Source: Blastocatellia bacterium
GTDB taxonomy: Bacteria > Acidobacteriota > Blastocatellia > Pyrinomonadales > Pyrinomonadaceae
DNA: 64,000 nucleotides
NCBI GenBank assembly: GCA_963834975.1
Contig: CAWIDZ010000004.1
Location: forward strand, 127,154 to 191,153
Direction of reading: 5' to 3'
Made by a program: the position numbers and the translations under genes. Shown here one piece after another: positions 1-37,312 of the stretch. The notes under the pieces were generated by a model. It had not been told where the DNA came from, ran no database searches, and saw nothing but the letters and a program-made list of their open reading frames with translations. Positions within the stretch are counted from its first letter, which is position 1; each line of letters starts with the position of its first letter.

Positions 1-1478
1 ATCCGTTTTGACCTTATTAGGACGAGAAGCGCAATAAGCCGGTTGTCGGCATCATACTTAAGGCCGAATCCGTTCGACTCGGCAGGAACATTGAGTTCGG
101 TCAGTTTATCGGTTATGTCATAGACGTAAGCAGTATGAGTTACTGAGTCGAGTTTCAGAGCAGTTCGATTACCAGCAGCGTCATAAACGTTCTCCATCAC
201 GTGGCCGAAAACATCCGTCTCAGTAGCTCTTCGGCCGCGATTATCATAGGTAAACGCGACAGTGCCATTTTGGTTTACAGCGGAGGTCAACCGCGAGAGA
301 TCGTCGTAACCGTATGTGGCGTATTGGGTCGAGCCCGTGTACATTATCCCGGTAAGGCGATTTAGGACATCATAGGCGTAGGTTGTTCCCGCACCGTTAT
401 GATCCGCGCGAGATGTTCTATTGCCGACCGCGTCATACCCGAAACTCATTGTCGTCCCAGCCCTCGTTTCCGATAGTTCTCGTCCCAGGGGATCATAGGT
501 AAACGTGTATTCGTGGCTCAATGCGTCTTTGACCTTGGTTAACTGCAAACGGGCGTTATAGGTGAGATAGGTCGGTTGCATCAGATCATCTGTTACGGTT
601 ATAAGCCGCTGAGCGTTGGGTATATCGTAGGAGTAAGCGTAGCTTGTCATGTGACCGGCAGTGTCTGCATGAGTAGCAACTTCACCAAGTTGGTCGTAGG
701 TAAAGTTTTCTTCCAATCGCGTCCCACCGATAGTCGGCAAAGGATACTTGATCTTCTTTACCCGATTGAAATCGTCGTATTCGACATCTGTGACATTCCC
801 CAGAGCGTCTATCTGAGACGTCAGATTCGACATCAGATCATAGCCATATGTCGTCGCGTGGCTCAGTGCGTCCGTTACGCCAGTGAGCCTGTAATTATTA
901 TCGTATGCATACGCCGTTGAATGGCCGAGTTCATCAGTGACGGATGTCCTGCGGCCCGCGAGATCATAACCAATAGATACAAAGTTCGTATCCGGGAATG
1001 TAATTTTGTTGATACGGTTATTAAGATCGTACTGAAGCGACGTTGCCTGGCTCAAGGCATTTGTAACGCTCGTCACCCGCGCTCGAGAGTCATAACCGAA
1101 GTTAGTGTGTTTACTGTTCGCATCGCTAATTTGCGTTAATCTGCCCGATGTATCGTAGGTCAGCGAAGTGGTGTGGTTGAGTGCGTCGGTGATCGATGAA
1201 GTTTGGCCCGCAGATGTATAGGTAAATGTTGTCGTATGACCGAGCGGATCGGTAGAGGTAAGCAGATTGCCGGTTGAGCTGTAAGTATTCGTCGTGATCC
1301 CGCCCATTCTGTCAGTGCTCGTCAGAACCTCGCCGAAGGAATTATGTGTAAATGTCTGTGTACCCAGAATATCCTGCATTGAGGTTATGTTTCGGTCGCT
1401 ATCATAACTATACAGAGTGTCGTGCAGAAGCGCGTCTCTTTTTCTAACAAGGTTTAGCCGCGCTGCTGCCGAGATCAT
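1..1478 (-). CDS. RHS/YD-repeat family protein, partial (C-terminal part lies beyond the left edge)
   Basis: One minus-strand frame stays consistent in my spot translations: 1380-1439 gives RDALLHDTLYSYDSDRNITS, 601-659 gives TSYAYSYDIPNAQRLI, and 1-59 gives KYDADNRLI. These are repeated Y-x-YD-x-x-(G/N)RL motifs. The ORF is absent from the track because it has no stop inside the window. The first in-frame ATG is at 1478. Confidence 0.8.
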   Translation of the reverse strand, partial: MISAAARLNLVRKRDALLHDTLYSYDSDRNITSMQDILGTQTFTHNSFGEVLTSTDRMGGITTNTYSSTGNLLTSTDPLGHTTTFTYTSAGQTSSITDALNHTTSLTYDTSGRLTQISDANSKHTNFGYDSRARVTSVTNALSQATSLQYDLNNRINKITFPDTNFVSIGYDLAGRRTSVTDELGHSTAYAYDNNYRLTGVTDALSHATTYGYDLMSNLTSQIDALGNVTDVEYDDFNRVKKIKYPLPTIGGTRLEENFTYDQLGEVATHADTAGHMTSYAYSYDIPNAQRLITVTDDLMQPTYLTYNARLQLTKVKDALSHEYTFTYDPLGRELSETRAGTTMSFGYDAVGNRTSRADHNGAGTTYAYDVLNRLTGIMYTGSTQYATYGYDDLSRLTSAVNQNGTVAFTYDNRGRRATETDVFGHVMENVYDAAGNRTALKLDSVTHTAYVYDITDKLTELNVPAESNGFGLKYDADNRLIALLVLIRSKR

Positions 1479-1722
1479 AGAAATACTGCGTGACCTCTGA
1501 ACCGCCGCCGCCGCAGCCACACACGCCCTCCATTTTTGTCACCAGGTTAGTTCCATATTTTCGCGTGTAATAGTATTTCGTTTCCCGTCCCAGAGCATCA
1601 GTTACTGTAAAGATATGGGGTCTGACATGCAAAATTGCGATTCTTGAACACTTCCCCGACCTCCTAAGCAATTTTACACCACGGTGCAAGTTGAGGTTAT
1701 TGACAGGCTGCCGTTTGTTCAT
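1444..1722 (-). CDS. YD-repeat N-terminal ORF, probably the frameshifted 5' end of the same rhs-family gene
   Basis: The 92-aa ORF contains VTDALGRETKYYYTRKYGTNLVTKMEG and ends ...TQYFYD, a YD motif. The YD repeat then continues in another frame (SAAARLNLVRKRDALLHD). There is a GGAG about 4 nt upstream of the ATG at 1722. Confidence 0.5.
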   Translation of the reverse strand: MNKRQPVNNLNLHRGVKLLRRSGKCSRIAILHVRPHIFTVTDALGRETKYYYTRKYGTNLVTKMEGVCGCGGGGSEVTQYFYDLGSSAAKPC

Positions 1723-2642: not shown

Positions 2643-3254
2643 ATGGCGAGACCATTGGTCCTTTCGCTCGACGGTGAAGAATTTTCCGTTGGGCTTGTCA
2701 AAATTGACCGAACTCAATTGTATGGCGATGTTACCGTCGAGGCCTTCGACGAACACGGCCACCCCGCGACGATCAAGGTGCTCGCCTCTGACGGTAATAC
2801 CCTCATCGACAAAGGCGGAACCGCGCTTGAGATGGTCGACAAAAACGGCAACTCGATCAACCGTGACAAGATACGCACCGTGGACCTGGAAGGCAACGAA
2901 CTCGAGACGGTCCCATCTTCATTTAGCCGCGTCAATAACTTAAAGCTCGCCTCCGTCGACGATTATCTTTCGCTGATCGTAAAGTCGGTGTATTGGCTTC
3001 AGGGTTATGAAAACTCCTCGCTCGCGGTTCTGTTTGATAATCTTAAGGAAGGCCATATTTATTCGTTCCCATTCAGCTTTCGCGACGGTATCGAATCGGA
3101 CGAGGCCTTTCTGATAGGCAGCAGCAAAGTTGCCTTTATGGTCATCGGCAATCAGGCGACGCTTGAATTTTTGACGTTCAAACAGGCAGCGGCACTCGAC
3201 ACGACCGAGGAAGACGAGATCTCGGCCGACGATCTGGATTTTGACCTGTTATAG
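2643..3254 (+). CDS. Hypothetical protein (203 aa), first gene of the ligase/PrimPol operon; has an acidic C-terminal tail
   Basis: Long ORF with a GAGG 8 nt upstream of the ATG. I recognise no family motif. It ends EEDEISADDLDFDLL. The next gene starts 12 nt downstream. Confidence 0.75.
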   Translation: MARPLVLSLDGEEFSVGLVKIDRTQLYGDVTVEAFDEHGHPATIKVLASDGNTLIDKGGTALEMVDKNGNSINRDKIRTVDLEGNELETVPSSFSRVNNLKLASVDDYLSLIVKSVYWLQGYENSSLAVLFDNLKEGHIYSFPFSFRDGIESDEAFLIGSSKVAFMVIGNQATLEFLTFKQAAALDTTEEDEISADDLDFDLL

Positions 3255-3266
3255 GAGATCTGACTA

Positions 3267-3974
3267 ATGGCGATAAATATCAGCAATCAGAAAAACCGCG
3301 ATGCGGTCGTCGCCCTCGAGGGGCTTTTTCCTCGTCGTGAGGTGCGATATGTCGACGAGAAAGGCGACCCCGTCCGCACACAAAAGGTCCTCAAATCGGA
3401 CGTCAAACATGACCTGCCCGAACTTCTCAAAAAACGGAAGAACCTCGAAAAAGTGGCAAAAGACCTGATCGCCGGCGACCCTGAGGTAGATCTCGAATCG
3501 TTTGGCACATTCCTCGCCGAAACATCGCGTGTTTACGTTTCAAAAGAGGGCATCGTCCATCTTGTCGAAGAATTTGAGGTCGTTATTGCCCCGGACGGGA
3601 CCGAACGCGAACGCCGGCCGCGGCGTAAGTTGGTGCAAAATCTGAACTCGGACATACCCCTCAGATGGACCGGGAAATTTATTAAGAAGGAAGAAGCAAT
3701 AGCGAAATTTGTCTTTAACAACAAACGCCAGTTGGCGCATGTTAACGGCCTGACGTTTGATTTTTTGTACGAAATGGCCGAGGAGCTCGACAAGAAAAAT
3801 TCGCTTCTGCTGATACGCGGCGGCGAAAAAGGTAATGAACCGATCGTGATGAACCGCGGCGGTAAACCGTATAACGCCTTTCTCGAGGGCCGCATCAAGG
3901 GCGACTCTTACTGCCTGATCCTGCATCTCTCGAACCTCGAACTAAAACGGCCAAAGGAGGTCGAAGATGTTTGA
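3267..3974 (+). CDS. Hypothetical protein (235 aa), second gene of the ligase/PrimPol operon
   Basis: Long ORF with a GGAG upstream. It overlaps the ligase start by 8 nt (ATGTTTGA). It is basic and charged (RERRPRRK) and I recognise no family motif. Confidence 0.75.
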   Translation: MAINISNQKNRDAVVALEGLFPRREVRYVDEKGDPVRTQKVLKSDVKHDLPELLKKRKNLEKVAKDLIAGDPEVDLESFGTFLAETSRVYVSKEGIVHLVEEFEVVIAPDGTERERRPRRKLVQNLNSDIPLRWTGKFIKKEEAIAKFVFNNKRQLAHVNGLTFDFLYEMAEELDKKNSLLLIRGGEKGNEPIVMNRGGKPYNAFLEGRIKGDSYCLILHLSNLELKRPKEVEDV

Positions 3975-5427
3975 CCTCGGCATAACCAAATCAAAATTTA
4001 CATGCAAATTTGGCGACTACTGCTTCGGCAAATCCGCCAACATCGCCGACCCGTCGCTGCAGCTGCGGGCCCAGGACTATCGACGCAAGATGAGCTCGAT
4101 GACCAGAGCCTTTTCAGGAGGCGATATCTATAAGCTGCCGAGGGCAAAAGACTATTACGTCTCGCGAAAATACGACGGCGAATTTGCGATGCTTTTCTAT
4201 GACGGTAAGACGATCTTGTCGATAAACGCCGGTGGTACCGTTCGCGTCGGCCTGCCCGCGTTTGCTGAAGCGGAAAAGCTTTTGAAAAAGGCCAAGGTCA
4301 AATCATGTGTGCTTGGCGCTGAGATCTATCTGCAGGACGTGAAATTTAAGACTCAGGCGATACACCAGGTCGTCGGGATCCTGCGTTCACCCAAAGCCAA
4401 GGCGGACCTCAGCCGCCTCGGCCTCGCGGTCTTTGATGTTATGGAATTTGACGGCAAACAGCCGTCATCGACGCAGGATGTTTTCGCATTACTGAAAAAA
4501 TGGTTCGGCAGCGGCAAATTAGCACACGCCGCCGAGGTCGTCGTTGCGGACGATCTGGACAAGATCACCGATATCTTTAACGAGTGGGTGGTGACTGAAG
4601 GCAGCGAGGGCCTGGTCGTGAGGAATGACCGTGCCGGATGGTTCAAGGTAAAATCCCGTCACAACCTCGATGTAGCTGTCATCGGGTTTTCAGAGGGGAT
4701 AGACGACCGCAAAGGCATGCTCCACGATCTGCTCGTCGCCGTTATGCGTGACGACGGCACCTATCACGAACTTGGCCGCGTCGGCGGCGGATTTACCGAC
4801 GAGAACCGCAAAGAGCTGGTTCGCGACCTGAGAAAGCGCACCGCTCCGTCAGATTATGTCGCCGTCAATAACGACTATGTCGCGTACGAAATGATCAAGC
4901 CCGGCCCCGTCATCGAGATCTCATGCCTTGACCTTATTCCCGAAAGATCAAGGGGCGGCCCGGTCAACCGAATGGTGCTCGAATGGGACGGCAAGCGTTA
5001 TCTCGCACTCGAGCGGATGCCGATCGTCAGCATGATCTCGCCGCAGTTCGTCCGCATTCGCGATGATAAGGAAGCTGTGGTCGCCGACGTGAATATCAGT
5101 CAGATCAACGATCTCGTCGAGGTGCCAAAGATCACAAAGACCGCTCGCGATGAAAAGAAGCCCGAGAGCCAACTTCTCGAGCGCGCCGTTTACACCAAGG
5201 TCATGAAAGGCAACACTATGGTCCGCAAACTGCTGTTATGGAAAACGAACAAGGAAAAGGACGAACAGTTCCCGGCCTATGTCGTTTATCTCACGGATTT
5301 CAGCCCGAACCGGGAAAACGCGCTTGAGCGTGATATCAAGATCGCCCATACCGTTTCAATGGCGCGAAGGCATTTCGATGATATGTCAAAGGCCAAGTTT
5401 ATCGGCGGTTGGGTAAAGGCGGAGTAA
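3967..5427 (+). CDS. ATP-dependent DNA ligase family protein with a roughly 110-aa C-terminal extension
   Basis: Nucleotidyltransferase motifs are present: I SRKYDGEF (Lys68), III VLGAEIYL, IIIa LAVFDVMEF, IV EGLVVR, V WFKVKSRHNLDVAVIG. An OB-domain end FVRIRDDK (motif VI-like) sits at aa 361-368. Residues 375-486 form an extra domain. Confidence 0.9.
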   Translation: MFDLGITKSKFTCKFGDYCFGKSANIADPSLQLRAQDYRRKMSSMTRAFSGGDIYKLPRAKDYYVSRKYDGEFAMLFYDGKTILSINAGGTVRVGLPAFAEAEKLLKKAKVKSCVLGAEIYLQDVKFKTQAIHQVVGILRSPKAKADLSRLGLAVFDVMEFDGKQPSSTQDVFALLKKWFGSGKLAHAAEVVVADDLDKITDIFNEWVVTEGSEGLVVRNDRAGWFKVKSRHNLDVAVIGFSEGIDDRKGMLHDLLVAVMRDDGTYHELGRVGGGFTDENRKELVRDLRKRTAPSDYVAVNNDYVAYEMIKPGPVIEISCLDLIPERSRGGPVNRMVLEWDGKRYLALERMPIVSMISPQFVRIRDDKEAVVADVNISQINDLVEVPKITKTARDEKKPESQLLERAVYTKVMKGNTMVRKLLLWKTNKEKDEQFPAYVVYLTDFSPNRENALERDIKIAHTVSMARRHFDDMSKAKFIGGWVKAE

Positions 5428-5430
5428 GGA

Positions 5431-6711
5431 ATGGTATTTCAGCGGTTTAGAGAATTTGCCGGGAACAAACGACTTCTTTGGATCGCCGAAGAGTGGCACC
5501 GCTATGCCGAAGAGCTTGCCGAATGGGCCATGAAGCGTCTCGTTAACCGACGCGACGTCTGGAGCCAATACACCTTGCGAAACGGTGTCATCGGCGTGGT
5601 CATGCTGCCGATAAAAGAGCTCCGCAAAAAAGGCAATCACATGGTCACGATCAAAAAGCTGGCCCGCCATTTTGCCGGCGAAAAACCCAGCGACCTGATC
5701 GGGCTTCATTCGATCAGCGATCATTCGACATGCAAATGGTTTGCTATCGACGTTGACCTGCATAACGAATCCGTCGCAAATGCTGACGAGGTGGCGGCTG
5801 CAAATTTTGCGGCCTGCCTGCACTGGGCCGACCAACTGCGTTCGCAAAAGATGGACCCGATGCTGCTCGACAGCAACGGGGTCGGCGGTTTTCATCTGTG
5901 GGTCTTGCTGGACAAGGAATATCCGCTGGCCGATACATATGATTTTGTGGACGAACTTCGCTCCAACTGGGAGGACCTCGATCTGCCGCGTCGGCCTGAG
6001 ATATTTCCGCCGAAGCGTGAGGTCGGGCCCGACGATCTGCCGTACGCTCTCAGGGTCCCGGGCCGTCATCATACCCGGCCCTTCTACACACGGCTCTGGA
6101 ATTTTGACCCGATGGGCGAGAACGAATGGCTCGAGGGCGGTGAGGCGATCGAGGCAATGATGAGAACGATCCCGACCAAACTCCCGAAAGCCAACCTTGA
6201 CGACAAACCGGAAAGACCGAAAACGGCCCAACCAAAAAAGAAAAAAGCCAAAACCTCTGTAACTAAATCAAAACCCCGCGTTTGTCTGGATCTGGACGGC
6301 GTCCTCGCTGAGTATGACGGATGGAAAGGGATCGGAAAGATCGGTCCTCCTCTGCCCGGCGCCCGCGAATTTGCCGAAAATTTGTCAAAGGTAGCGGACA
6401 TTGTGATCTTTAGCAGCAGATGCTCAAGCGAACCTGATGCCCGCGGCGATATTTCAGGATTGACCCCCGGTCAGGCGCGGATACACATCATCGAATGGCT
6501 CGAAAAAAATGAGATACCCTTCACCGATGTTTTTATGGGCGAGGGCAAACCACGAGTCGCCGCGATCATAGATGACCGGGCAGTTTCATGCCGGCCGCAG
6601 GAGAGCGAAGAGTCTTATGCTGAAACGCTCGAAGCGGTTGGCCGATTGTTAAAGCGTAAATCGGCCAAAGTTAAACGGCCAGGCCGCATCGTTAAGTCAA
6701 AAGCGACTTAG
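5431..6711 (+). CDS. Primase-polymerase (AEP/PrimPol) fused to a C-terminal HAD-superfamily phosphatase-like domain
   Basis: AEP motifs: FAIDVDLH (DxD, aa 105-111), GGFHLWVLL (aa 152-160) and EIFPPK...ALRVPGRHH (aa 190-213). A Lys-rich linker KPERPKTAQPKKKKAKTSVTKSKPR follows. The HAD motif I is CLDLDGVL (aa 285-292), with IFSSR and IIDDR further on. The gene starts 3 nt after the ligase stop. Confidence 0.85.
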   Translation: MVFQRFREFAGNKRLLWIAEEWHRYAEELAEWAMKRLVNRRDVWSQYTLRNGVIGVVMLPIKELRKKGNHMVTIKKLARHFAGEKPSDLIGLHSISDHSTCKWFAIDVDLHNESVANADEVAAANFAACLHWADQLRSQKMDPMLLDSNGVGGFHLWVLLDKEYPLADTYDFVDELRSNWEDLDLPRRPEIFPPKREVGPDDLPYALRVPGRHHTRPFYTRLWNFDPMGENEWLEGGEAIEAMMRTIPTKLPKANLDDKPERPKTAQPKKKKAKTSVTKSKPRVCLDLDGVLAEYDGWKGIGKIGPPLPGAREFAENLSKVADIVIFSSRCSSEPDARGDISGLTPGQARIHIIEWLEKNEIPFTDVFMGEGKPRVAAIIDDRAVSCRPQESEESYAETLEAVGRLLKRKSAKVKRPGRIVKSKAT

Positions 6712-6766
6712 TCCCAAACTTGCACAAGGCGCTCCGGCACCAGCGAGTCGATCCATCCCCGATTCA

Positions 6767-7252
6767 TCATCCTTTCTTCTCTTTCCTGGACGGAGCCTTG
6801 CTTTTCGCTTTCTTTGCCGGAAAGACCGTCTCGATCTTCCAATCAGGCTCTATGTACTTATCGTTGGCCTTGATCAAAAGCCAGTCTTTGTCTTTTCCAT
6901 TGAGCTTTATCAATGCGAAAGATCCGTGAATCTTTGAGCCGAAAAACGTAATCTCCAGCTTACCCGCTTTTAACTGCCGCAGCGGATCCTCATCCGTTTC
7001 AAATTCGCCTTTGTCCCAGATCCTGACCTCGCCGGCGCCATAGCTGCCCTCGGCGATCTCGCCCTCAAAATCAATATAGCTTAGTGCATGATCGGGAACT
7101 GCCACCGCGAGGCGTTTATCCGCCGGGTTCAAAGAGACGCCTTTGGGTACGGCCCACGATTTCAGGACACCGTCGATCTCAAGCCGCAGATCAAAGTGCA
7201 GATTGGTCGCGTGGTGTTCGTGGATCACAAATCGTTTTCGCATATTGTTCAA
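6767..7252 (-). CDS. Stand-alone LigD-type 3'-phosphoesterase (PE) domain protein
   Basis: RFVIHEHHATNLHFDLRLEIDGVLKSWAVPKGVSLNP...AVPDHALSYIDFEGEI..GSYGAGEVRIWDKG matches the conserved LigD PE signature (H-x-H, HFD-RLE, SWAVPKG, FEG, YGaG). Confidence 0.9.
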   Translation of the reverse strand: MNNMRKRFVIHEHHATNLHFDLRLEIDGVLKSWAVPKGVSLNPADKRLAVAVPDHALSYIDFEGEIAEGSYGAGEVRIWDKGEFETDEDPLRQLKAGKLEITFFGSKIHGSFALIKLNGKDKDWLLIKANDKYIEPDWKIETVFPAKKAKSKAPSRKEKKG

Positions 7253-8445: not shown

Positions 8446-9060
8446 ATGTGTGGACGATATAAGATGACTGCCGAGCAGCAGGAACTGTTCGATCAGATGC
8501 CTTACCTCGAACAGGATGAATATTTTGATATTCACGGCTATAAAAAGCAGCCTGAGATATTTCCGGGAACCGAGATATTGGCGGTCAACAATAAACATAA
8601 AGCCGAGGCCGTCTGGTGGACAATTGAGGATTTTGACTACAAAGGCGTTTGGCGGCGGGCTATAAATGCAAAGTCGGAAAATGTCCGATTTGCCAATATG
8701 TTCAAGGAAGCTTTTTTCACCGACCGCATTCTTATCCCGGCCACAGGTATCTTCGAATGGCAGGATCAGCCCGACAAAACCAAGAAGAAATTTGAGATAT
8801 GGTTTGATGAGCCTGTTTTTGCACTCGGAGGCCTGGCCAGAGAATGTGAGATCAAAGGCGGATCTAAACGCTGCGGTGTGATCCTGACGACTCGTGCCAA
8901 TGAGGTTTTTGCCGAGATCCACAATTCAAAGCAGCGGCAGGCGGTCGTTGTTCGCCGGCCTGACTACGAAAAATGGCTCGACCCGTCCACCCCATTCCAG
9001 GAATTAGAAAGGATTATGGAACCGGTTGATAACGAAGAAACCCACTTTAAGAGCGTCTGA
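8446..9060 (+). CDS. SOS response-associated peptidase (SRAP/YedK-like abasic-site processing protein)
   Basis: It starts MCGRY, the catalytic Cys2 hallmark of SRAP proteins. At 204 aa its size is typical. Confidence 0.8.
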   Translation: MCGRYKMTAEQQELFDQMPYLEQDEYFDIHGYKKQPEIFPGTEILAVNNKHKAEAVWWTIEDFDYKGVWRRAINAKSENVRFANMFKEAFFTDRILIPATGIFEWQDQPDKTKKKFEIWFDEPVFALGGLARECEIKGGSKRCGVILTTRANEVFAEIHNSKQRQAVVVRRPDYEKWLDPSTPFQELERIMEPVDNEETHFKSV

Positions 9061-16041: not shown

Positions 16042-18846
16042 TCACTTTCCGATCAATATGAACGGCGACCAATAATAGGGATGGCCGCCGCGGGTGATAA
16101 AACCGATCTGTGCTGCTCTTAAAGATGCCGAAATTGAACCGCCGCGTTGCAGGTTTTGGTACAGATCGCTCATCAGCCGGCCTGAGGCTTCGTCGTTAAC
16201 AGACCACAAACTCACTATCAGAGCACCTGCACCCGCGGTCAGGAACCCGCGGGCGAGGCCGAGTATCTCGTCACCAGCAAACACTTCACTCAGCCCCGTT
16301 TCACAGGCGCTCAGGGTGACGAGGCTAGCCTTGAGCTTTTGCGAACAAACATCACGCACCGTGATCCAGCCGTCTGAAAGATGCAGGCTCGAGAACATAG
16401 GGCTCTCAGGCCGAAAATGCCCGTGGCATGCAAGATGTATAATGTCGTACCTCGATGCGCTTGCCGTAAAAGCCGCAAAGCTGGCTTCGCCGCCGACAAG
16501 CGCCCGTGCCCGCGGCAGCGTGTTTTGGATCTGCCTGATCTCATCCTCAACAAACGGTATTCGCTCGTCCGCGTAACCCATCAGAAGTGAGCTTTTGGCC
16601 GTTTCATCGGTTCTTTCGTTCAGGACCGACCAGACCGCGGCACTCGGCGCAAATGTCGTTTCAAAACTTTCGACAACATATTTGTGATGGCTGCGCAGAG
16701 CGTGAAAGGGAACGTAATTCAAAATTCCCGCCGGCACAATAACGAGCCGGTCGCCTTTGATCAGGCTGTCAATAGGTTTGAGGAGTTGTCCGTACAGACG
16801 CTCAAGACAGGCGTCGGTGCGTGATCTCATATCGGCCATGAATCGCTCAGGGATGCTGGTGCCGTATCTGAGGGCACCGAACTGAAAGTGAAGTTCCTCG
16901 AGTGAGTGCCGCACATCGTCGGTTCGGGCGAGATCGGCGACGAAACTGACCTTTGACCCGTTTATTACAAATGCTGAGAATAGCCCGTCAAACTCGACAA
17001 ACTCGATCAAAGTCGATGACTTGCCGAGCTGCTTTGACAATCGGCTTACACTAAAATCGACCTGGCTCTTTTCTTCCGAGCCTGATCTCGCCGGCCGCAG
17101 GCTTTCAACCTGTCTGATGGTCGATGTCAGGTTTGATTCGGCCGTCTTTATGTCCGACCTGAGTTTTTCCGCATCCGCGTCTGTTGAGATATCGAGCCGT
17201 CGGTAATACTGGTTCAACTCCGTCCTGTACTCGTCCGCCTGCGCCTGCAGCTTTCGTGTTGATGCGGCATCGGCGGAGCTGGATGACATCGAATCGAGCA
17301 GAGCCCTCGAGCGGCCGCTTTCTAATGCTTCAAAAGCCGCAGCGTACTTTTTCCGGCTCAGATACAGCCGGGCGAGGTTATGGAACGGCTCAAGCCGCGA
17401 CGCAAAGAATGCCATGCTGAACTCTTCGGCGCCGAGCGGGGACCGCATAGCCTCGACCTGCTTGATCGCCGAGGTGAACAGGCGTTTTGCCTTGCCATAT
17501 TCGCCGCGTTCGGCGGCCAGTTTGCCGCCCGCATTGTAGGCTTGCCGGACGGCGTCGGGATGCTGCAGCGACCGGCCCAGTTTGGCAGCGTCGCTGAATA
17601 TTTTGTCGGCCTTGTCGGGGTGGTCCGACTGAACAAAGTACTCGCCCCTCAGCAGTTCCAGGCTCACCCGATGACGCGGATTACCGCTATCCTTAACAGC
17701 CGCCGCGGCGTCACGGATGATCGATCCGGCGGCATCGGGGTCGCCACGTTCGATCTCGTTCCTCGCCCGCTCAAGCAGCACAGACACTTCGCCGGTAAGG
17801 TTCTGTTCCCGTTCGAACAACTGCTGGGCCCTTTTCAATTGCCGGCCCGCAACGGTTCGCTTTCCAATAGCAGCGGCCGTCTTACCATAATTAAGTCTGG
17901 CCCTCGCCTCCTCGGCAGTTAATTTCAGTTGGCGAAAAATTGGTGTGACACGTTCATATATCCCAAACGCATCTTCAGCCAGGTTTAGCTCAGAATAGAT
18001 GTCAGCGATCTCGAGGTCGGCTATTGCTGACTGATGCGGCATCCTGAGCTCGTCGTACATCTGCCTCGACGATTCGAGGTGACGCAGCGCATCGGCGTAA
18101 CGCCCGCGGAGCAGGTCGAGGTTGCCGAGGCTAGCCTCGATCTCAGCCTCGGTTACGCGCATTTTTCCGGAGCGCGCTCCCATTAATGCCATCACATAAT
18201 ACCGGTCGGCTTTTGAGAAATCGTTCAGTTCAGCATAGGTGTTGGCAAGGCCGTTTTCAGCCATGACCTGCCACGTCCGCTCGCCGGACATCCGGAATCG
18301 GCGAAGAGCCGTCAAGCCATATTTCTCGGCCTCACGATGCAGCGCCCGGCGCGAGACAATATTGCTGAGATTCATCTCGATCTTTCCGGCAGCGACCTGG
18401 TCCCCGCTGCGTACAAAGACCTTTAGGGCTTTGCGGCCTGCACCGACCGCCTCGTCATAGCGGCCGAGCATCGCCAGGGCAATGAGTTTTGCGACCTGAG
18501 TCTGTGCCGAATCGAGAGGGCTGTCAATCGTGTCATAGATCTCCGTCGCGTCGTCGAGTGAGGCGACGGCGGCCTCAAATTTTCCTTTGGTTATTAGGGC
18601 GATGCCTTTGACCCAGCTTGCCGCCGCGCGGATCCGCTCGTCTGTGCCGGCCCTCGCAAGCCAACGCATCGCCAGGTCCGCCCGCTGCGCCCTCACAGGC
18701 TCGACGGCCCACGCCGCGTAACAGGCCTTGCGGATAGCATCGGCCAAACGTGCGTCCGCGAGGCGCGGATATTGGGCGAGCAGAGACCGTCGCTCGGCAT
18801 CACTGCGGGCATCGATCAAGTTTTTGGCGAGATCAGCTCTGCGCAT
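16042..18846 (-). CDS. TPR-repeat CHAT-domain protein (caspase-like protease fold)
   Basis: 934 aa. The N-terminal two thirds are TPR-like helical repeats. The C-terminal CHAT domain has DIIHLACHGHF (His) and LVTLSACETG (Cys). Confidence 0.85.
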   Translation of the reverse strand: MRRADLAKNLIDARSDAERRSLLAQYPRLADARLADAIRKACYAAWAVEPVRAQRADLAMRWLARAGTDERIRAAASWVKGIALITKGKFEAAVASLDDATEIYDTIDSPLDSAQTQVAKLIALAMLGRYDEAVGAGRKALKVFVRSGDQVAAGKIEMNLSNIVSRRALHREAEKYGLTALRRFRMSGERTWQVMAENGLANTYAELNDFSKADRYYVMALMGARSGKMRVTEAEIEASLGNLDLLRGRYADALRHLESSRQMYDELRMPHQSAIADLEIADIYSELNLAEDAFGIYERVTPIFRQLKLTAEEARARLNYGKTAAAIGKRTVAGRQLKRAQQLFEREQNLTGEVSVLLERARNEIERGDPDAAGSIIRDAAAAVKDSGNPRHRVSLELLRGEYFVQSDHPDKADKIFSDAAKLGRSLQHPDAVRQAYNAGGKLAAERGEYGKAKRLFTSAIKQVEAMRSPLGAEEFSMAFFASRLEPFHNLARLYLSRKKYAAAFEALESGRSRALLDSMSSSSADAASTRKLQAQADEYRTELNQYYRRLDISTDADAEKLRSDIKTAESNLTSTIRQVESLRPARSGSEEKSQVDFSVSRLSKQLGKSSTLIEFVEFDGLFSAFVINGSKVSFVADLARTDDVRHSLEELHFQFGALRYGTSIPERFMADMRSRTDACLERLYGQLLKPIDSLIKGDRLVIVPAGILNYVPFHALRSHHKYVVESFETTFAPSAAVWSVLNERTDETAKSSLLMGYADERIPFVEDEIRQIQNTLPRARALVGGEASFAAFTASASRYDIIHLACHGHFRPESPMFSSLHLSDGWITVRDVCSQKLKASLVTLSACETGLSEVFAGDEILGLARGFLTAGAGALIVSLWSVNDEASGRLMSDLYQNLQRGGSISASLRAAQIGFITRGGHPYYWSPFILIGK

Positions 18847-18925
18847 AAACTGTCATTATACAATGAGGAAAAGGCGAAGGTTCCTAGGTCCTTCGCCTTT
18901 TGAGGAATGGGGTATGGCAGGAAAG

Positions 18926-19417
18926 TTATTCGAGAATGAGTTTTTCGATAAAGATCTCGAGGCCGTTACCGCGGACGGTAAGACCATATTGGCCCGCCGA
19001 AACGCCTTTTAGGTTGAATCCGCTGGCATCGGCTATTTTGGTTTTGAACGTTATTTCATCGTTAGAGATCTCGACCTCGCCGCTCTTAAATCCGTCACCG
19101 AGGATCTGGCCGCGTATGTCGAAACCTTTTTTCCCTGGTGCGATCCTCAGATCGACCGCATTGTCACCGGCGTCAAAAAGCATCTGCCGGGCCCCGGCAC
19201 CTGATGCAGACCGTTCGCCAAACGCAGCCCGATTCGGAGCCAGGTCCATCTGCAACGCCGCTAAAACGCGGGTCACGACAGACGCCTTAGGTTCGGCAAC
19301 TCTAGAACGAAACAGATCCCTCGCGTATTTCAGCGAGTTTGCCGGTGCGTCAGCCGATCGGTCTGAAAGCATCCGCCCAATGATGTGTTGTAATTTTTGT
19401 TCTTCTGAATTATTCAT
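18926..19417 (-). CDS. Hypothetical cytosolic protein encoded between the ECF sigma and CHAT genes
   Basis: ORF with ATG at 19417 (MNNSEEQ...) or GTG at 19441. It has no transmembrane segment and no zinc anti-sigma motif. The C-terminal part is beta-rich. Confidence 0.6.
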   Translation of the reverse strand: MNNSEEQKLQHIIGRMLSDRSADAPANSLKYARDLFRSRVAEPKASVVTRVLAALQMDLAPNRAAFGERSASGAGARQMLFDAGDNAVDLRIAPGKKGFDIRGQILGDGFKSGEVEISNDEITFKTKIADASGFNLKGVSAGQYGLTVRGNGLEIFIEKLILE

Positions 19418-19481
19418 GACTTGCCGAGTTCCTTGCTCCACTTGAACAGTGCGGCCGCGATCTCCAAAAAGACACTCCTCA

Positions 19482-20087
19482 TCATTTTGTCAGCACTTTT
19501 CCCAGTTTTTTCAAACAGCGTGAACGCAGCGGGCTGATACTGGTTTCACCGACTCCTATTGCCGCACCGACCTCGGCGTAGCTTGCGGCCGGGTCGCACA
19601 GATATATCATCGACAATATTTTTTGGCACCTTTCTTCGAGCTCTGCGAGCGCGTTGCGGATCAGGTGCTGTTCTTCGAGTTCGATCAGGGCGTCGTCCGC
19701 GAGCAGTGTCTTATCGGGAATGGCGGCCATTTCCGCTTCCATTTCCTCAGGCGTGTTTGGTGAATGGAACCCTTTTGAGCCGCGAATTATCCCCCACGTT
19801 TTAAATTTCGCGGTCGTGACCATCCATGAACGGATCTTTTCGGGCTGCTGGATCTCATCGATCTTTTCGACCAGGGTGAGGAACACCTCCTGAAAAACAT
19901 CGGCCGCCTGCTCATCAGACAGACCAGCCCGGCGGGGTATCGTGATGATCAGGCGCTGATAACGGTCGACCAATGCGTCCCACGCGCTCTGGTCGCCTCG
20001 CCGGCACCTTTTAACAAGGTCGGCGTCGATCCTGGATATTTTTAGCGATTCGAGGCTGGCATTACCCTTTACCTCAGCCGTGTCCAT
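19482..20087 (-). CDS. ECF-type RNA polymerase sigma-70 family factor
   Basis: Region 2 reads WDALVDRYQRLIITIPRRAGLSDEQAADVFQEVFLTLV. Region 4 HTH reads SYAEVGAAIGVGETSISPLRSRCLKKL. The ATG is at 20087, with an upstream TTG at 20150 possible. Confidence 0.85.
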   Translation of the reverse strand: MDTAEVKGNASLESLKISRIDADLVKRCRRGDQSAWDALVDRYQRLIITIPRRAGLSDEQAADVFQEVFLTLVEKIDEIQQPEKIRSWMVTTAKFKTWGIIRGSKGFHSPNTPEEMEAEMAAIPDKTLLADDALIELEEQHLIRNALAELEERCQKILSMIYLCDPAASYAEVGAAIGVGETSISPLRSRCLKKLGKVLTK

Positions 20088-20251
20088 ATAGTTTAGATTC
20101 TTAATTAGGAGTTCATATTTAGCAAGAACCCGACCCAGCGTATGCCGCAAACGCTAACGCAACCTTTGGCGGGTATGATAACATTTCGTTTTCGGATATA
20201 TCACGGAATTGAATGCCCGCGGTTAATGCGAAACGCGGAATTTACGCATGT

Positions 20252-33482: not shown

Positions 33483-35384
33483 TCATGGCGTGGGCTTTGC
33501 TGCCGGCGGTTCGTCTAATTTAAGGAACAGAACGGGCGCATCATGGTCAGAGACTCGTTCGGGCCGCAGCGGATCATTACCCCAAACCAGAGGAAAATCT
33601 GCGTCGACGCGGGCGTATCCAAATTTTGCCAGCCTTTCGCGGACCGGCCTGTTGATGAGGATGTGGTCTATCGCCTGTGCCGTCCCGTCATACACGTAAG
33701 AGTATCGATTTTTCTGATCTATATATTCGATCAGGTTTGCCAGGCCGGTATTGAAAGCTGTTTTTGATGGCGTGATCACGTCAGGGTCTGACTTTCCTTT
33801 CAATATCCCGATCAGGTCGTTGTAACCGTCATTGAACTGGAATGCATTGAAATCACCGCAAATTATCAGGCGCTCGGCCGGGTCTGCCTTTTCACGGTCC
33901 TCGACCCACTTCGCCAGCCATTCCGCTTCGAGCCGGCGTTTGTTGCGAACACGGTCGCCGTCCTTGGGGTCATTAATGCCGCGGTACGATTTGAAGTGAT
34001 TTACGATAACGGTAAAGGCAAGCGGTTTCTCGGTCTTGGTATCCAATACCTCAGCGCGAAGCATGAGCGGCGGACGGTCAAAGAGCTTTTCATCCGGAGA
34101 ACCGCCCGGGTAATTCATCTTAATGTCGGCGGCGAGTTGTTTGGTTTCAATGACCTTGATCTTGCCCGGCTTGACCAGAAAGCCGACGTTGATCCCACGA
34201 ACGTCATTACCGTTTTCCAGATAGGCAACATATTTAGGATCGGGTTGGTCGGCGGCGACAGCATCGGCGCTGATCTTAGCGGCGATCTTTTGCATCACCT
34301 TGAGATTCTCTACCTCTACGATCCCCAGAACATCCGGCATTGAGAGGACATTGCGGATCGCTAACGAGACCTTATTCAATCGATTTTGAAAGACGGCTTT
34401 TGGCAATATCGCTTCTTTAACTACCGTTTTCGAATTATCCTCGTCGTCAAAAAAGTTCTCGATATTAAAGCTGCCAATAGTGACCTCTCGTTCTCCTGCG
34501 GCGCTGACCGGGACAAATCCTTTGATATTCTCAACCGTTGGTGCAGGATCGGCATCGATCAACACCGTGTAGAAACCCTTGTAATAATCGACGACCCCGG
34601 TTAACCCTTTGATCGTAGCTCCGGCAGGTATGTCCAGGACCTTTGCCCCGTTAAGTCCATCACTGTCGACACGCAGAACCTCAGGGTTCATATCAAACGC
34701 CGGTGTCTGGGCCGGCAGCTTTTCCATCAGCTTGGTAAGTATCTCGATACCCGGCTCGCGAAGGGGACGCGGCGCATCGATCAAGGATGCAAAGAAAACT
34801 CCGTTTGAGGTCGAAAGGCCTGTCTTTGCATTCGGCGGATATCCGCCGGTCGGGACGACAACAACGATGTCCGCCCATACCCTCATCCCCTCGAACCGTT
34901 CCATCTGGTCAAGTTTGCCTTTTGGGTCGAGCTCGGCGGATGTCAAAACGATCGGTGCCGGCAGCGGATTGTCTTTTGATATGACCTTGACGGTCGGCCT
35001 TGTTAATTCGGTAATGCTAAAGTACGCCGCTTCGTTCTTTGGAACATATTCACTTACAGTGCCGTCAACCTGAACAAGATATCCGATCGAGACCGCGTCG
35101 ACGCTCTCAGATCCAAAAACATAAATACCCTCGGACGTTTTAGGGTCCTTGTCGGCGTCGGCATCCGGCGTCTGAAGATAAAAACCACGCTTGCTTATCG
35201 CCGTGACAATACCCTTTGTACGGACACTCTGATTAGCGTAGCTTGATTTAACGGAATTACCTTGTATCTCAGCGATCGACAGCTCTTTTTGCGCATAGAC
35301 AGAAACCGAGGTTCCGCCTATAACAAAAGCAACAACTGCGAATGACAGCCTTAACCAGGCAAGTATGGTAGATCGTGATCTCAT
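33483..35384 (-). CDS. Secreted ExeM/NucH-type extracellular nuclease (endonuclease/exonuclease/phosphatase fold)
   Basis: Signal peptide, then IAEIQGNSVKSSYANQSVRTKGIVTA...GFYLQ, an N-terminal OB-like module typical of ExeM/NucH. An EEP core follows (IGSFNIENFF ... SDHDAPVL). Confidence 0.75.
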   Translation of the reverse strand: MRSRSTILAWLRLSFAVVAFVIGGTSVSVYAQKELSIAEIQGNSVKSSYANQSVRTKGIVTAISKRGFYLQTPDADADKDPKTSEGIYVFGSESVDAVSIGYLVQVDGTVSEYVPKNEAAYFSITELTRPTVKVISKDNPLPAPIVLTSAELDPKGKLDQMERFEGMRVWADIVVVVPTGGYPPNAKTGLSTSNGVFFASLIDAPRPLREPGIEILTKLMEKLPAQTPAFDMNPEVLRVDSDGLNGAKVLDIPAGATIKGLTGVVDYYKGFYTVLIDADPAPTVENIKGFVPVSAAGEREVTIGSFNIENFFDDEDNSKTVVKEAILPKAVFQNRLNKVSLAIRNVLSMPDVLGIVEVENLKVMQKIAAKISADAVAADQPDPKYVAYLENGNDVRGINVGFLVKPGKIKVIETKQLAADIKMNYPGGSPDEKLFDRPPLMLRAEVLDTKTEKPLAFTVIVNHFKSYRGINDPKDGDRVRNKRRLEAEWLAKWVEDREKADPAERLIICGDFNAFQFNDGYNDLIGILKGKSDPDVITPSKTAFNTGLANLIEYIDQKNRYSYVYDGTAQAIDHILINRPVRERLAKFGYARVDADFPLVWGNDPLRPERVSDHDAPVLFLKLDEPPAAKPTP

Positions 35385-35473
35385 TACAATTTATCCCGTT
35401 TTAATCCGAATGGTTCTCGCGTGGTCTTTTTGTTATAGGATGCCTCCGTTGGACAAAAGTTCTGAATTACTGT

Positions 35474-37312
35474 TTATCCACGCGCTTCTTTAGTCGGACG
35501 CGAATCTTGCGGCCGGACGTTGGTCAGGAAATTATATCCGGTAAGCTGCTCGATCCTCGCAATGTTAGTGCGGTATTGAGTCCAGGGCCTGGTGACGCTT
35601 TGGGTGTTCGGCATTAGCACCGTGATAACGCGGGTAAAACTATTGACGCGTTGAGCATCATTTGATCCGACCGGCAAAACGACGATCACTTTCCACGTCA
35701 TAGCGGGAACCGTAACGTGTCCGTTGGCGATCGTATTTATAACATTGCTGCTCATCGAACCTACCCCGCCCATGCCTATGCCGCCGTCATAGATGTAAAG
35801 CTCATAGCCGCTCTGCACCAGCGACCGGCAATAATCCTCGAGATCGGCCCAAACAAGCTGGTTGTTATTTGGCGCCTGCGGCATCATGTTGGTCATTAAG
35901 AACGTCGCCGAATTGCTAGGCACCGTATCCGTCCGGTCGCCCGAAGGGCAATGATGGCCCCGGTCAAAGCCATATGTAGCGAAGTCATAGTCTGACGCCT
36001 GGACCTGATACCACCCCGCGGGAAGCGACGTATCGGGCCTGAAATCGTCCTGCCTGCTCGTCGTGCCGAGCCATGACGTATCCAGATGCCATGCGACCCA
36101 GTTAGGAATGCCCCGGTCGCGGTGATAGGACATTACATACTGGCTTTTTGCCAAAAGGTAATTCGTCGGGCTATTGACGTTCGTTACTGCTCCGGACGGA
36201 TTGCCCAATACCAAATGCTCTGCCGCGCTGTGCGGTGTGGTTACGGTTACCGTGAGGCTTATCGATGTTGTTGCTGTCCGTAATTCGGCGTCGGCAATAT
36301 TTACCGGTAAAGAAAAATTGCCTTCGACTGAATTTCCCGGAACGGCTTCCGAATACGAAAATACATTGTCGCCCGCCGTCACATCGCCGTGAGTTCCGTC
36401 GTCGAAAAACGATTGAGTCGCAGAACCGCCGACTTGTGTAAGATCAGTGCGAACTGTAATGCCTGTGCTCGGCGGCGAAGCGGCGGGCACGACCGTTACC
36501 GTAAGCAATGTTGTTCCGCCCGGAGCAACCGAATTTGGACTTGCGTTGCCAAAGCCCTGAAGTTCGCCGCTGCCGCCGCCGCACGGAGCAAACTGGCTTG
36601 CAGTGTTGCGTGGTGGCGGTATCGGTGCCACTGGAGGATTTGTGTATACGTCGAAGTCCGCGTTGTTATTATCAGTATCCGTGCAGCCGCCGGATTTCCT
36701 TGCGGCACCCTGGACAGAAGTGATCGCGACCCCATTATTAACAGGTGGATTACCTCCTTCGCCGTTGCCGGCCGTTCCGTTGCCAGCTGCTCCGTAAGCG
36801 ACCCAATCTACAAACGCCGCCAGTTGAGTGGCATTACATGGCGTCGCCGACGCTCCACAAATGTTAGCGCCCAATGCCGCGGTGTTCACGAGGCCGATCT
36901 TGCCGCTCGAGCCCGACATATTGATGTTTGTGGTCGAAGCATCAGGCGATACGGGCAAAGGCGTACTTCCAGGTGCGGCGCTGCCCAATTGGACGAGGTA
37001 ATATTGTCCCGGCGCCACTGATGTGTTCGGCAGAGCAAAAGCACCAGCACCGAAATTGCCGGTGGCCGAACCATAATACAGGGAAAGGCCGTTGAGCGAT
37101 TGCGCGGCAGCAGAAACATTCTTGATCTCAACCCAGTCGTTCGAGTAATAGCCGTTGCCGCCCGAAACCTGGCTAAGGACCAGGGAAGTAGATACGACCG
37201 GTGCGTTATCGTTTGCTAATCCCTCAGATCGTGCCGATGCGGAGATCCCGGACCAAAACCAGACAGATGCCAAGAGCGTCAGAATAGAGAGGCTCAGGTA
37301 AAACTTCTTCAT
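35474..37312 (-). CDS. Secreted DNA/RNA non-specific endonuclease (beta-beta-alpha-Me, NucA/EndoG-like) with an N-terminal lamin-tail-like domain
   Basis: Signal peptide. The LTD-like segment is SQVSGGNGYYSNDWVEIKNVSAAAQSLNGLSLYY. The catalytic FDRGHHCPSGDR ... NMMPQAPNNN carries the DRGH motif. Confidence 0.8.
   Translation of the reverse strand: MKKFYLSLSILTLLASVWFWSGISASARSEGLANDNAPVVSTSLVLSQVSGGNGYYSNDWVEIKNVSAAAQSLNGLSLYYGSATGNFGAGAFALPNTSVAPGQYYLVQLGSAAPGSTPLPVSPDASTTNINMSGSSGKIGLVNTAALGANICGASATPCNATQLAAFVDWVAYGAAGNGTAGNGEGGNPPVNNGVAITSVQGAARKSGGCTDTDNNNADFDVYTNPPVAPIPPPRNTASQFAPCGGGSGELQGFGNASPNSVAPGGTTLLTVTVVPAASPPSTGITVRTDLTQVGGSATQSFFDDGTHGDVTAGDNVFSYSEAVPGNSVEGNFSLPVNIADAELRTATTSISLTVTVTTPHSAAEHLVLGNPSGAVTNVNSPTNYLLAKSQYVMSYHRDRGIPNWVAWHLDTSWLGTTSRQDDFRPDTSLPAGWYQVQASDYDFATYGFDRGHHCPSGDRTDTVPSNSATFLMTNMMPQAPNNNQLVWADLEDYCRSLVQSGYELYIYDGGIGMGGVGSMSSNVINTIANGHVTVPAMTWKVIVVLPVGSNDAQRVNSFTRVITVLMPNTQSVTRPWTQYRTNIARIEQLTGYNFLTNVRPQDSRPTKEARG

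Follow-up and report, generated by a model that had tools for sequence, protein, structure and literature searches.

What do two proteins that no sequence family claims do at the head of an operon encoding a DNA ligase and a primase-polymerase? The question is posed by a four-gene block at positions 2643-6711, on the forward strand, of a 64-kb stretch of Blastocatellia bacterium DNA (the whole stretch that we analyzed, here called the window), together with a convergent neighboring gene that extends to position 7252. A preliminary description of this DNA had presented the block as a Ku-less system for healing and sealing nucleic-acid ends, in which genes 1 and 2 might be the end-binding or targeting subunits of a non-canonical break-repair module. 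We find that, in structure searches, the models predicted for both genes match almost nothing but Ku. A cryptic two-subunit Ku is thus a better description than "Ku-less", and by their Ku-type structure matches the two proteins do look like end-binding subunits. We consider it fairly probable that the locus encodes a non-canonical DNA double-strand-break (DSB) repair system resembling non-homologous end joining (NHEJ), with a predicted heterodimeric Ku-like ring.

The four open reading frames (ORFs) lie on one strand and form a single tightly coupled block, as had been described before (Table 1). As read from the sequence, genes 1 and 2 are separated by a 12-nucleotide (nt) gap, TAGGAGATCTGACTAATG, with the Shine-Dalgarno-like motif GGAG directly 5' of the start; genes 2 and 3 overlap by 8 nt, ATGTTTGA, with a second such motif, AGGAGG, ahead; and genes 3 and 4 lie 3 nt apart, TAAGGAATG. 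No convincing plus-strand terminator was found inside the four-gene block, and promoter and terminator counts stood at shuffle level. Searches of Pfam, NCBIfam, PADLOC and PHROGs returned no match for gene 1 or gene 2, in agreement with the statement that the two are unrecognizable by sequence. A tblastn search of the window with the Mycobacterium tuberculosis and Bacillus subtilis Ku proteins likewise revealed no sequence-recognizable Ku. The further statement that the window contains no Ku therefore holds for recognizable sequences, but not for structures, since the models of genes 1 and 2 match Ku.

A structure search for a Ku β-barrel had been suggested in the preliminary description; it returned nothing but Ku for the gene 1 model, and nearly so for gene 2 on a weak model. 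The AlphaFold2 model of gene 1 has a mean predicted local distance difference test score (pLDDT) of 72. Its core, residues 1-22 and 90-171, scores mostly 82-94 in 10-residue blocks, the central residues 30-90 are poorly defined, and the tail, residues 177-203, is disordered (pLDDT <50). When this model was compared with the PDB using Foldseek, all of the 50 top matches were Ku. The best was B. subtilis Ku (9vnq, E=2e-5), followed by M. tuberculosis Ku (8v53 and 9i91) and then human Ku70/80, and the bacterial Ku homodimers scored between E=2e-5 and 2e-4. Comparison with the viral library BFVD gave two significant matches, both to phage Ku (3.5e-5 and 6.4e-4), with the next match at 0.11. We judge the Ku core fold, a β-barrel with a bridge/pillar insertion, to be present in the gene 1 model, with the bridge (residues 30-90) poorly modeled. 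On the strength of this model, gene 1 very probably has a Ku-type fold.

The gene 2 model was built from a shallower alignment and has a pLDDT of 53.7. Its first 38 PDB matches in Foldseek were Ku, with a root-mean-square deviation (rmsd) of about 17 Å; the best of these, 8v53_B at E=6.8e-4, was obtained with a low-confidence model of gene 2. The high rmsd makes the retrieval of Ku suggestive, not proof. Genes 1 and 2 could also be weakly aligned with each other: hhalign gave P=0.0016 over 117 columns and P=0.004, in both cases for a C-terminal β-α-β-β-β core, and 2 of 120 shuffles equaled the score. Gene 2 is probably a distant paralogue of gene 1 with the same fold. Both are real genes and not chance ORFs, as the database holds 484 relatives of gene 1 and 2220 of gene 2, all of them annotated "hypothetical" and none with a Pfam domain. 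An exhaustive profile search resolved the gene 2 family into 501 cluster representatives at 50% identity.

The ends of the two proteins differ in character. Gene 1 terminates in ...EEDEISADDLDFDLL, and every homologue, the most distant included, closes with an acidic stretch whose tip is aromatic or hydrophobic (EFEVW, LDLEMWF, LDFEML, VSFAMF, IDFEDLW, FDFAMF, VSFEDAW and DMDFGML; LDFDLL here). The tail is similar to the very end of human Ku80 (...EGGDVDDLLDMI), a DNA-PKcs-binding segment with the partner-binding motif ...DDLLDMI, and also to SSB-type tails; the likeness could equally be that of a generic acidic-hydrophobic motif. We predict that the acidic tail recruits a partner protein. Many distant relatives of gene 2 instead carry long Lys/Ala/Pro-rich C-terminal tails (AAKKPAAKKP...) that score as PF07382 HC2. 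Mycobacterial Ku has a similar tail with the identical Pfam HC2 match, and such a tail is never found on gene 1. One distant gene 2 homologue of 460 residues (P0365) consists of the core, a Lys-rich linker and then a region that is SAM-domain-like by eye, which looks like an unusual accessory domain for a Ku-like protein.

A neighborhood survey, also proposed in the preliminary description, established that the linkage of gene 1, gene 2 and the ligase gene is conserved far beyond this genome. Taking one genome per species, we identified gene 2 relatives in 142 species and counted linkage in the 80 best loci, all of which are from Acidobacteriota; the source names of close homologues put the present organism in the same phylum, class Blastocatellia, order Pyrinomonadales. 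Gene 1 lies directly upstream of gene 2 in 74 of 74 Blastocatellia loci, and the ligase gene directly downstream of gene 2 in 63 of 64. A gene 4 homologue, which encodes a fusion of an archaeo-eukaryotic primase (AEP) to a HAD phosphatase-like domain, lies downstream in 41 of 45 (directly adjacent in 27). The genes are 55-83% identical and fixed in order across what appears to be the whole bacterial class, in varied housekeeping neighborhoods. As the flanks change between genomes (XdhC in one, RuvAB in another) around a constant block, we read it as a vertically inherited housekeeping block and not as an island. The junction between the ligase and AEP-HAD genes holds an insert of 0.2-2.4 kb in 14 loci (L010, L011, L015, L017, L018, L022, L027, L030, L031, L052, L055, L066, L070 and L071). 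Where the ORFs of these inserts were read, they were by eye HicA/HicB-like, PIN-toxin, HigA-like and DUF433-like toxin-antitoxin genes; the L027 insert carries a putative DNA methyltransferase gene and a large ORF. Selfish modules seem to insert preferentially at this junction, with gene order otherwise kept.

Nine more distant contexts were recovered by exact-protein look-ups, and a metagenome scan gave one 1.5-kb contig. A gene 1 homologue of about 200 residues followed by gene 2 is found in all nine contexts, and the orthologous ligase gene comes next in all but one (P0445, described below). With the Blastocatellia counts, this is the genomic association with ligase and AEP genes expected of Ku. 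By source name, distant members belong to Alistipes (gut Bacteroidota), Kiritimatiellia and two different Promethearchaeota (Asgard) metagenome-assembled genomes (MAGs); the Alistipes gene 2 members occur on >1000 contigs and include a RefSeq WP_ record. No AEP was found in the nine distant loci, which indicates that the AEP-HAD gene is an accretion of Blastocatellia. The conserved unit is the trio of gene 1, gene 2 and ligase, and not the four-gene operon. The operon as first described thus stands as far as the trio is concerned, but its AEP-HAD gene is absent from every distant lineage inspected.

Several of these distant loci contain other DNA-repair genes. The Kiritimatiellia locus has Holliday-junction resolvase and SbcCD-like genes, and the Alistipes locus UvrA and Ogt. 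On both Promethearchaeota-labeled contigs (L100, JGI Ga0366838_1000219; L111, GCA_054386735.1 JBQSIJ010000208.1) the trio is clustered with Metallophos (Mre11-like) and SMC_N (Rad50-like) genes and the gene for an SF1 helicase of about 1650 residues. L100 also carries a PNKP-like gene (PNK3P + AAA_33), and L111 has a gene for TFIIB, which speaks for an archaeal origin. The repeated occurrence of Mre11/Rad50-like neighbors points to DSBs. Together, the genes of the L100 and L111 neighborhoods amount to a eukaryote-like DSB-repair toolkit in one place.

Gene 3 had been described as an ATP-dependent ligase, and our searches bear this out. It contains the motifs KYDG, LGAEIY, EGLVVR, WFKVK and FVRIRDDK and matches DNA_ligase_A_M (PF01068, 1.9e-11) and DNA_ligase_A_C (PF04679, 1.2e-9), both above the gathering cut-offs; nucleotidyltransferase and OB domains, motifs I-VI and the catalytic lysine of the ATP-dependent DNA ligase superfamily are all present. 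It is not a LigD, as all its matches to NCBIfam ligase models fall far under the cut-offs, those to the NHEJ-ligase models included (TIGR02779, 56.1 bits versus 227.75; TIGR02776, 47.2 versus 373.2), and it has no polymerase (Pol) or phosphoesterase (PE) domain in the polypeptide. In the PDB it comes closest to archaeal Lig and human LIG1, and even these match at only ~1e-7. Judged by these comparisons the gene 3 ligase is a distinct clade. Its orthologues in distant lineages match at 1e-39 to 2e-64, and nearly every member of the family retains intact ligase motifs.

The part of the ligase that is most conserved across phyla is a C-terminal domain of about 90 residues, VRK..LWKTNK...YVVYLTDFSPNR...GGW, in which K421, N428, S446, R449, G481 and W482 are invariant. 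This domain has no relative in Pfam or the PDB. A WGR-like identity was considered by eye and found no support in either database. In one distant lineage (L104, 7465-8922) a ligase-like protein lacks the catalytic lysine (no KxDG, and SSLLLR in place of EGLVVR) and keeps the C-terminal domain. In P0445 (L101:10001-11146), an arrangement seen on 9 contigs, the ligase has been lost except for its C-terminal domain, which is joined straight onto the gene 2 homologue. We read this, in the manner of a Rosetta-stone fusion, as a hint that the domain acts together with the Ku-like pair.

Gene 4 had been assigned to the PrimPol-type AEPs, as distinct from LigD-Pol, and to a fusion with a HAD domain, and the present matches agree. 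It carries the motifs DVD, GGFHLW and RVPGRHH, a Lys-rich linker and DLDGVL, and scores 31.1 bits against AEP-TOTE of Pfam (PF22548, cut-off 27), a model matched by 25 of 25 members of the gene 4 family (best 5e-9). The family profile retrieved the CRISPR-associated PrimPol 7nqf (5e-5) and the small HAD protein 1xpj (2.3e-6), and there was no match between gene 4 and the LigD-Pol models. D107, D109 and H111, G152, G153 and H155, and R208, G211, R212 and H213 are invariant, as are D287, D289 and G290 of the HAD domain (DxDG). Gene 4 thus has both the PrimPol-type AEP core (DxD, sxH, R.PG) and the HAD superfamily motif I, DxDG[TV], with its core. The PHROG matches of gene 4 include a PNK-type phosphatase family, and because of this similarity the HAD domain may act as a 3'-phosphatase, for which the predicted substrate would be a 3'-phosphate on DNA. 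The convergent gene next to the operon matches LigD_N (7.2e-41) and TIGR02777 (180 bits, cut-off 144). It is convergent and of the LigD type, as first described, but a homologue lies within ±8 kb at only 2 of the 80 related loci (L070 and L071). We rejected it as part of the system because the linkage is not conserved, and it is probably a loosely associated or incidental neighbor.

Taken together, these data can be accommodated in the following mechanism. Genes 1 and 2 would be very divergent, anciently duplicated Ku-fold proteins whose heterodimeric ring threads onto DNA ends. Gene 2 would be the DNA-gripping subunit, with Lys-rich tails in some lineages, and gene 1 the recruiting subunit, acting through its conserved acidic tail with the hydrophobic tip. 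The ring would bring in the dedicated neighboring ATP-dependent ligase, probably by contact with the ligase C-terminal domain, the gene 1 tail or both, and the break would then be sealed. In Blastocatellia, the PrimPol-type AEP of gene 4 would perform gap-filling or templated extension and the fused HAD phosphatase would strip 3'-phosphates, the two together standing in for the Pol and PE domains that canonical LigD carries. Heterodimer formation, DNA-end binding, the ligase-recruiting surfaces and the role in vivo are what we infer for this system.

A number of results weigh against this interpretation. Permissive searches of Pfam and NCBIfam (E<=10) with 70 members per family found no Ku and returned scattered noise (DUF5052, DUF1028), and profile hidden Markov models compared with PDB sequences gave nothing for gene 1 and only spurious S100/calbindin matches for gene 2, again with no Ku. 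We made three comparisons with Ku itself, using a narrow mycobacterial/Bacillus profile, a diverse profile that combined the ku genes of M. tuberculosis and B. subtilis with 4 from viral contigs and 9 from plasmids, and this diverse profile against enlarged alignments (87 representatives down to ~27% identity for gene 2; 9 distant homologues added for gene 1). In hhalign, gene 1 and Ku are colinear over 91-93 columns (gene 1 38-138 with Ku 38-133, P=0.05-0.02), but the match to diverse Ku is not significant after calibration, with 9 of 120 block shuffles reaching an equal score. Gene 2 is not significant against diverse Ku either, its score being equaled by 30 of 120 block shuffles. Sequence homology of genes 1 and 2 to Ku is thus not claimed, as the best P value of 0.02 failed the block-shuffle calibration, and neither gene falls within the Ku sequence family (PF02735, COG1273). 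On the structural side, the TM-scores of gene 1 against Ku are only ~0.45, because the would-be DNA-encircling bridge, segment 30-90, is poorly predicted, and the gene 2 model is poor in both pLDDT and the rmsd of its matches. Finally, L104 and P0445 imply that the Ku-like pair may have a role that is not strictly tied to the ligase, and the pair together with the ligase C-terminal domain may function independently of ligation. As no sequence method ties gene 1 or gene 2 to canonical Ku, the assignment is based on the fold, the genomic context and the architecture of the tails.

These observations could also be explained if genes 1 and 2 were unrelated β-rich accessory factors of a specialized ligase, for example a clamp-like, single-stranded DNA-binding or targeting pair, and if the module served not to join ends but to seal nicks or to take part in excision repair or RNA repair. 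The Ku matches would then be an artefact of models of moderate and low confidence. The missing sequence connection to Ku, the poor gene 2 model and TM-scores that do not exceed 0.45 are in keeping with this explanation, as are weak matches to HAD_SAK_2, an RNA-repair HAD family, in 2 of 25 gene 4 homologues. Mycobacteria provide a further parallel, LigC and Prim-PolC, an ATP-dependent ligase and an AEP that each stand alone, are encoded together and act in excision-repair gap filling. That pair is not known to have dedicated Ku-like partners, whereas here two Ku-like genes always precede the ligase gene. We nevertheless consider the accessory-factor explanation unlikely. The gene 1 model is Ku-specific in two independent libraries, with a sharp fall to noise, and both proteins independently retrieve the one fold; the Mre11/Rad50-like neighbors point to DSBs, and the Lys-rich HC2 tails of the gene 2 family are typical of Ku.

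The preliminary description had left room for a defense or replication module, and neither found support: there is no convincing PADLOC match, no plasmid or phage copy was found, and the window is ordinary chromosome, with genes for EPSP synthase, ThiC, RlmN, glycosyltransferases and a sigma factor. In a conflict module, either anti-phage defense or counter-defense and akin to the systems after which Pfam AEP-TOTE is named, the primase-polymerase, ligase and end-binding proteins would act against invading DNA. Among Pfam families, the AEP indeed matches the "TOTE conflict system" AEP best, PADLOC gave weak matches to the DRT UG10 PrimPol region (4e-4) and to CRISPR-associated PrimPol, and toxin-antitoxin pairs, in one locus a putative methyltransferase, lie between the ligase and AEP-HAD genes in the 14 loci with inserts. 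These PADLOC matches are partial and concern the AEP only; genes 1, 2 and 3 had none, no full PADLOC system was detected, and Pfam and PADLOC scans revealed no other conflict-system domain adjoining the operon. Defense systems are patchy and located in islands, whereas the block is vertically conserved at the identities given above, in fixed order and amid differing housekeeping neighborhoods. The AEP is also missing from most lineages that keep the trio. A scan of the window for a tRNA, integrase, repeats, compositional break or island features around the locus found none, and tblastn found no copies of gene 2 on plasmids or phages. A conflict module is therefore very unlikely. It is hardly credible that the block serves an integrated mobile element for replication or priming, with accessory proteins added to a primase-polymerase and a ligase. 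Plasmids and integrated elements often carry PrimPol-type AEPs (PMC5862659), but the locus has none of the hallmarks just listed, neither flanking att sites or integrases nor an episomal copy of the block were seen, most lineages have the trio without an AEP, and the flanks vary between genomes around a constant block. On context and the missing plasmid and phage copies we rejected both a defense island and a mobile element.

The NHEJ-like interpretation invites comparison with known end-joining systems. Canonical bacterial NHEJ, formed by a Ku homodimer and LigD, shares with the locus a Ku-fold protein (a predicted fold here) beside an ATP-dependent ligase and an AEP polymerase, an associated end-healing phosphatase or phosphoesterase, and Lys-rich tails on some of the Ku-like subunits. 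It differs in having one ku gene, whereas here there are two distinct Ku-like genes that Ku sequence models fail to recognize. The ligase here is of a separate clade with a unique C-terminal domain, the AEP is of the PrimPol type and not LigD-Pol, a HAD takes the place of the PE fold, and the activities reside on separate polypeptides.

A closer parallel in gene arrangement is Ku3-Ku4/LigD4 of Sinorhizobium meliloti, in which neighboring, co-expressed ku genes are proposed to form a heterodimer with a dedicated ligase (Dupuy et al. 2019, PMC6379672), and only one of the partners is Lys-tailed (PMC6379672). The system described here likewise has two adjacent genes and a dedicated ligase and, in some lineages, one basic-tailed and one non-basic partner. 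Ku3 and Ku4 are sequence-recognizable and LigD4 is canonical, whereas the pair described here is undetectable by sequence and far more widely spread, including Bacteroidota, Kiritimatiellia and Asgard-labeled MAGs. Canonical Ku pairs were also seen on alphaproteobacterial plasmids, in tandem in Rhizobium (L096, CP140860) and convergent in Devosia (L095, NZ_CP104964), which is consistent with the idea of a Ku3/Ku4-type heterodimer.

The eukaryotic system of Ku70/Ku80 and DNA ligase IV, with PNKP and Pol X, resembles the locus in its two-subunit Ku-fold ring and in a separate ligase with a C-terminal partner-binding region, both of which are predictions here, and a PNKP-type phosphatase gene lies nearby in one Asgard contig. 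The proteins here differ in lacking vWA and SAP domains and any detectable sequence relationship, and the ligase C-terminal domain is not BRCT. Their best structure matches are to bacterial Ku, and no specific affinity to the eukaryotic branch was seen.

By its NHEJ-type logic of Ku, ligase, AEP and end-healing activity, the kind of system is known. What appears to be new is the cryptic two-subunit Ku-fold pair, the ligase clade with its new domain and the PrimPol-HAD fusion; the Ku assignment itself depends on predicted structures, one of them weak. We searched the literature for TOTE, for prokaryotic Ku proteins that are divergent or heterodimeric, and for Ku in Asgard archaea, and found no account of the gene 1-gene 2-ligase module.

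The remainder of the window adds several observations. Upstream of the operon (1-2640) there is no long ORF; a short ORF at 1444-1722 (-), with the translation YYYTRKYGTNLVTKMEG, is RHS/YD-repeat-like, and this fragment may thus be the remnant of a decayed gene. A gene for an SOS-response-associated peptidase (SRAP, a YedK/HMCES-type abasic-site sensor) lies at 8446-9060 (+), 1.2 kb past the phosphoesterase gene. Several DNA-repair genes therefore occur close together in the window; the SRAP gene is unlinked across the 80 related loci. Two neighboring large nuclease genes, whose products are possibly secreted, are found at 33483-37312 (-), one with an Exo_endo_phos domain (633 residues) and the other with Endonuclease_NS and lamin-tail domains (612 residues). 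At 16042-20150 (-), a protein of 934 residues with TPR and CHAT (caspase-like) domains is encoded close to a subtilase and a sigma factor of the ECF type; this neighborhood may be a signaling or conflict-type module unrelated to the operon.

Table 1. Features of the operon and its convergent neighbor, in positions of the window; nt, nucleotides.
Feature	Position	Strand	Length	Assignment
Gene 1	2643-3254	+	203 residues	ORF; Ku-fold protein, predicted subunit A of the Ku-like ring
Acidic C-terminal tail of gene 1	3198-3251	+		ends ...DTTEEDEISADDLDFDLL, hydrophobic tip; predicted partner-recruitment motif
Gene 2	3267-3974	+	235 residues	ORF; probable second Ku-fold subunit (B)
Gene 3	3967-5427	+	486 residues	ATP-dependent DNA ligase, nucleotidyltransferase and OB domains, without a Lig1-type N-terminal DNA-binding domain
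Ligase C-terminal domain	5164-5424	+	~residues 400-486	signature of the family; candidate Ku-like or DNA-end interaction module
Gene 4	5431-6711	+	426 residues	PrimPol-type AEP, Lys-rich linker and HAD phosphatase-like domain
AEP of gene 4	~nt 5479-6180	+
Lys-rich linker of gene 4	6181-6276	+
HAD domain of gene 4	~nt 6277-6615	+
Stand-alone LigD-type 3'-phosphoesterase	6767-7252	-	161 residues	convergent; LigD_N and TIGR02777 matches

Current thinking holds that the Ku heterodimer arose by a eukaryote-specific duplication, and the Asgard copies of the trio bear on the open question of the origin of eukaryotic Ku70/80. Should these copies prove authentic and group with Ku70/Ku80 in a phylogeny based on structure, a heterodimeric Ku with a separate ligase could pre-date eukaryotes. 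We regard it as improbable, yet worth stating, that the trio is an ancient end-joining machine of two-subunit Ku and dedicated ligase whose Asgard copies are authentic and tied to the ancestry of Ku70/80.

For bacteria, the implications concern the distribution of NHEJ. Published surveys score genomes without a sequence-recognizable Ku as NHEJ-negative (PMC7719229; bioRxiv 10.1101/2023.09.30.560322). If our interpretation is correct, a cryptic Ku-like pair with a ligase of its own would change the NHEJ map, and surveys that depend on a recognizable Ku would miss the genomes that carry the trio, which is apparently conserved across a whole class of soil acidobacteria and is also present in abundant gut Alistipes, in Kiritimatiellia and in Asgard-labeled MAGs. 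It would also represent a widespread natural heterodimeric prokaryotic Ku, which has so far been only a genetic proposal, for Ku3/Ku4 of S. meliloti. The system would contribute new parts, namely the ligase-specific C-terminal domain, the acidic tail motif and a PrimPol-HAD protein swapped for the Pol and PE domains of LigD. The finding bears on genome-editing outcomes in bacteria that carry the trio, and on the desiccation and stationary-phase survival of soil Acidobacteriota.

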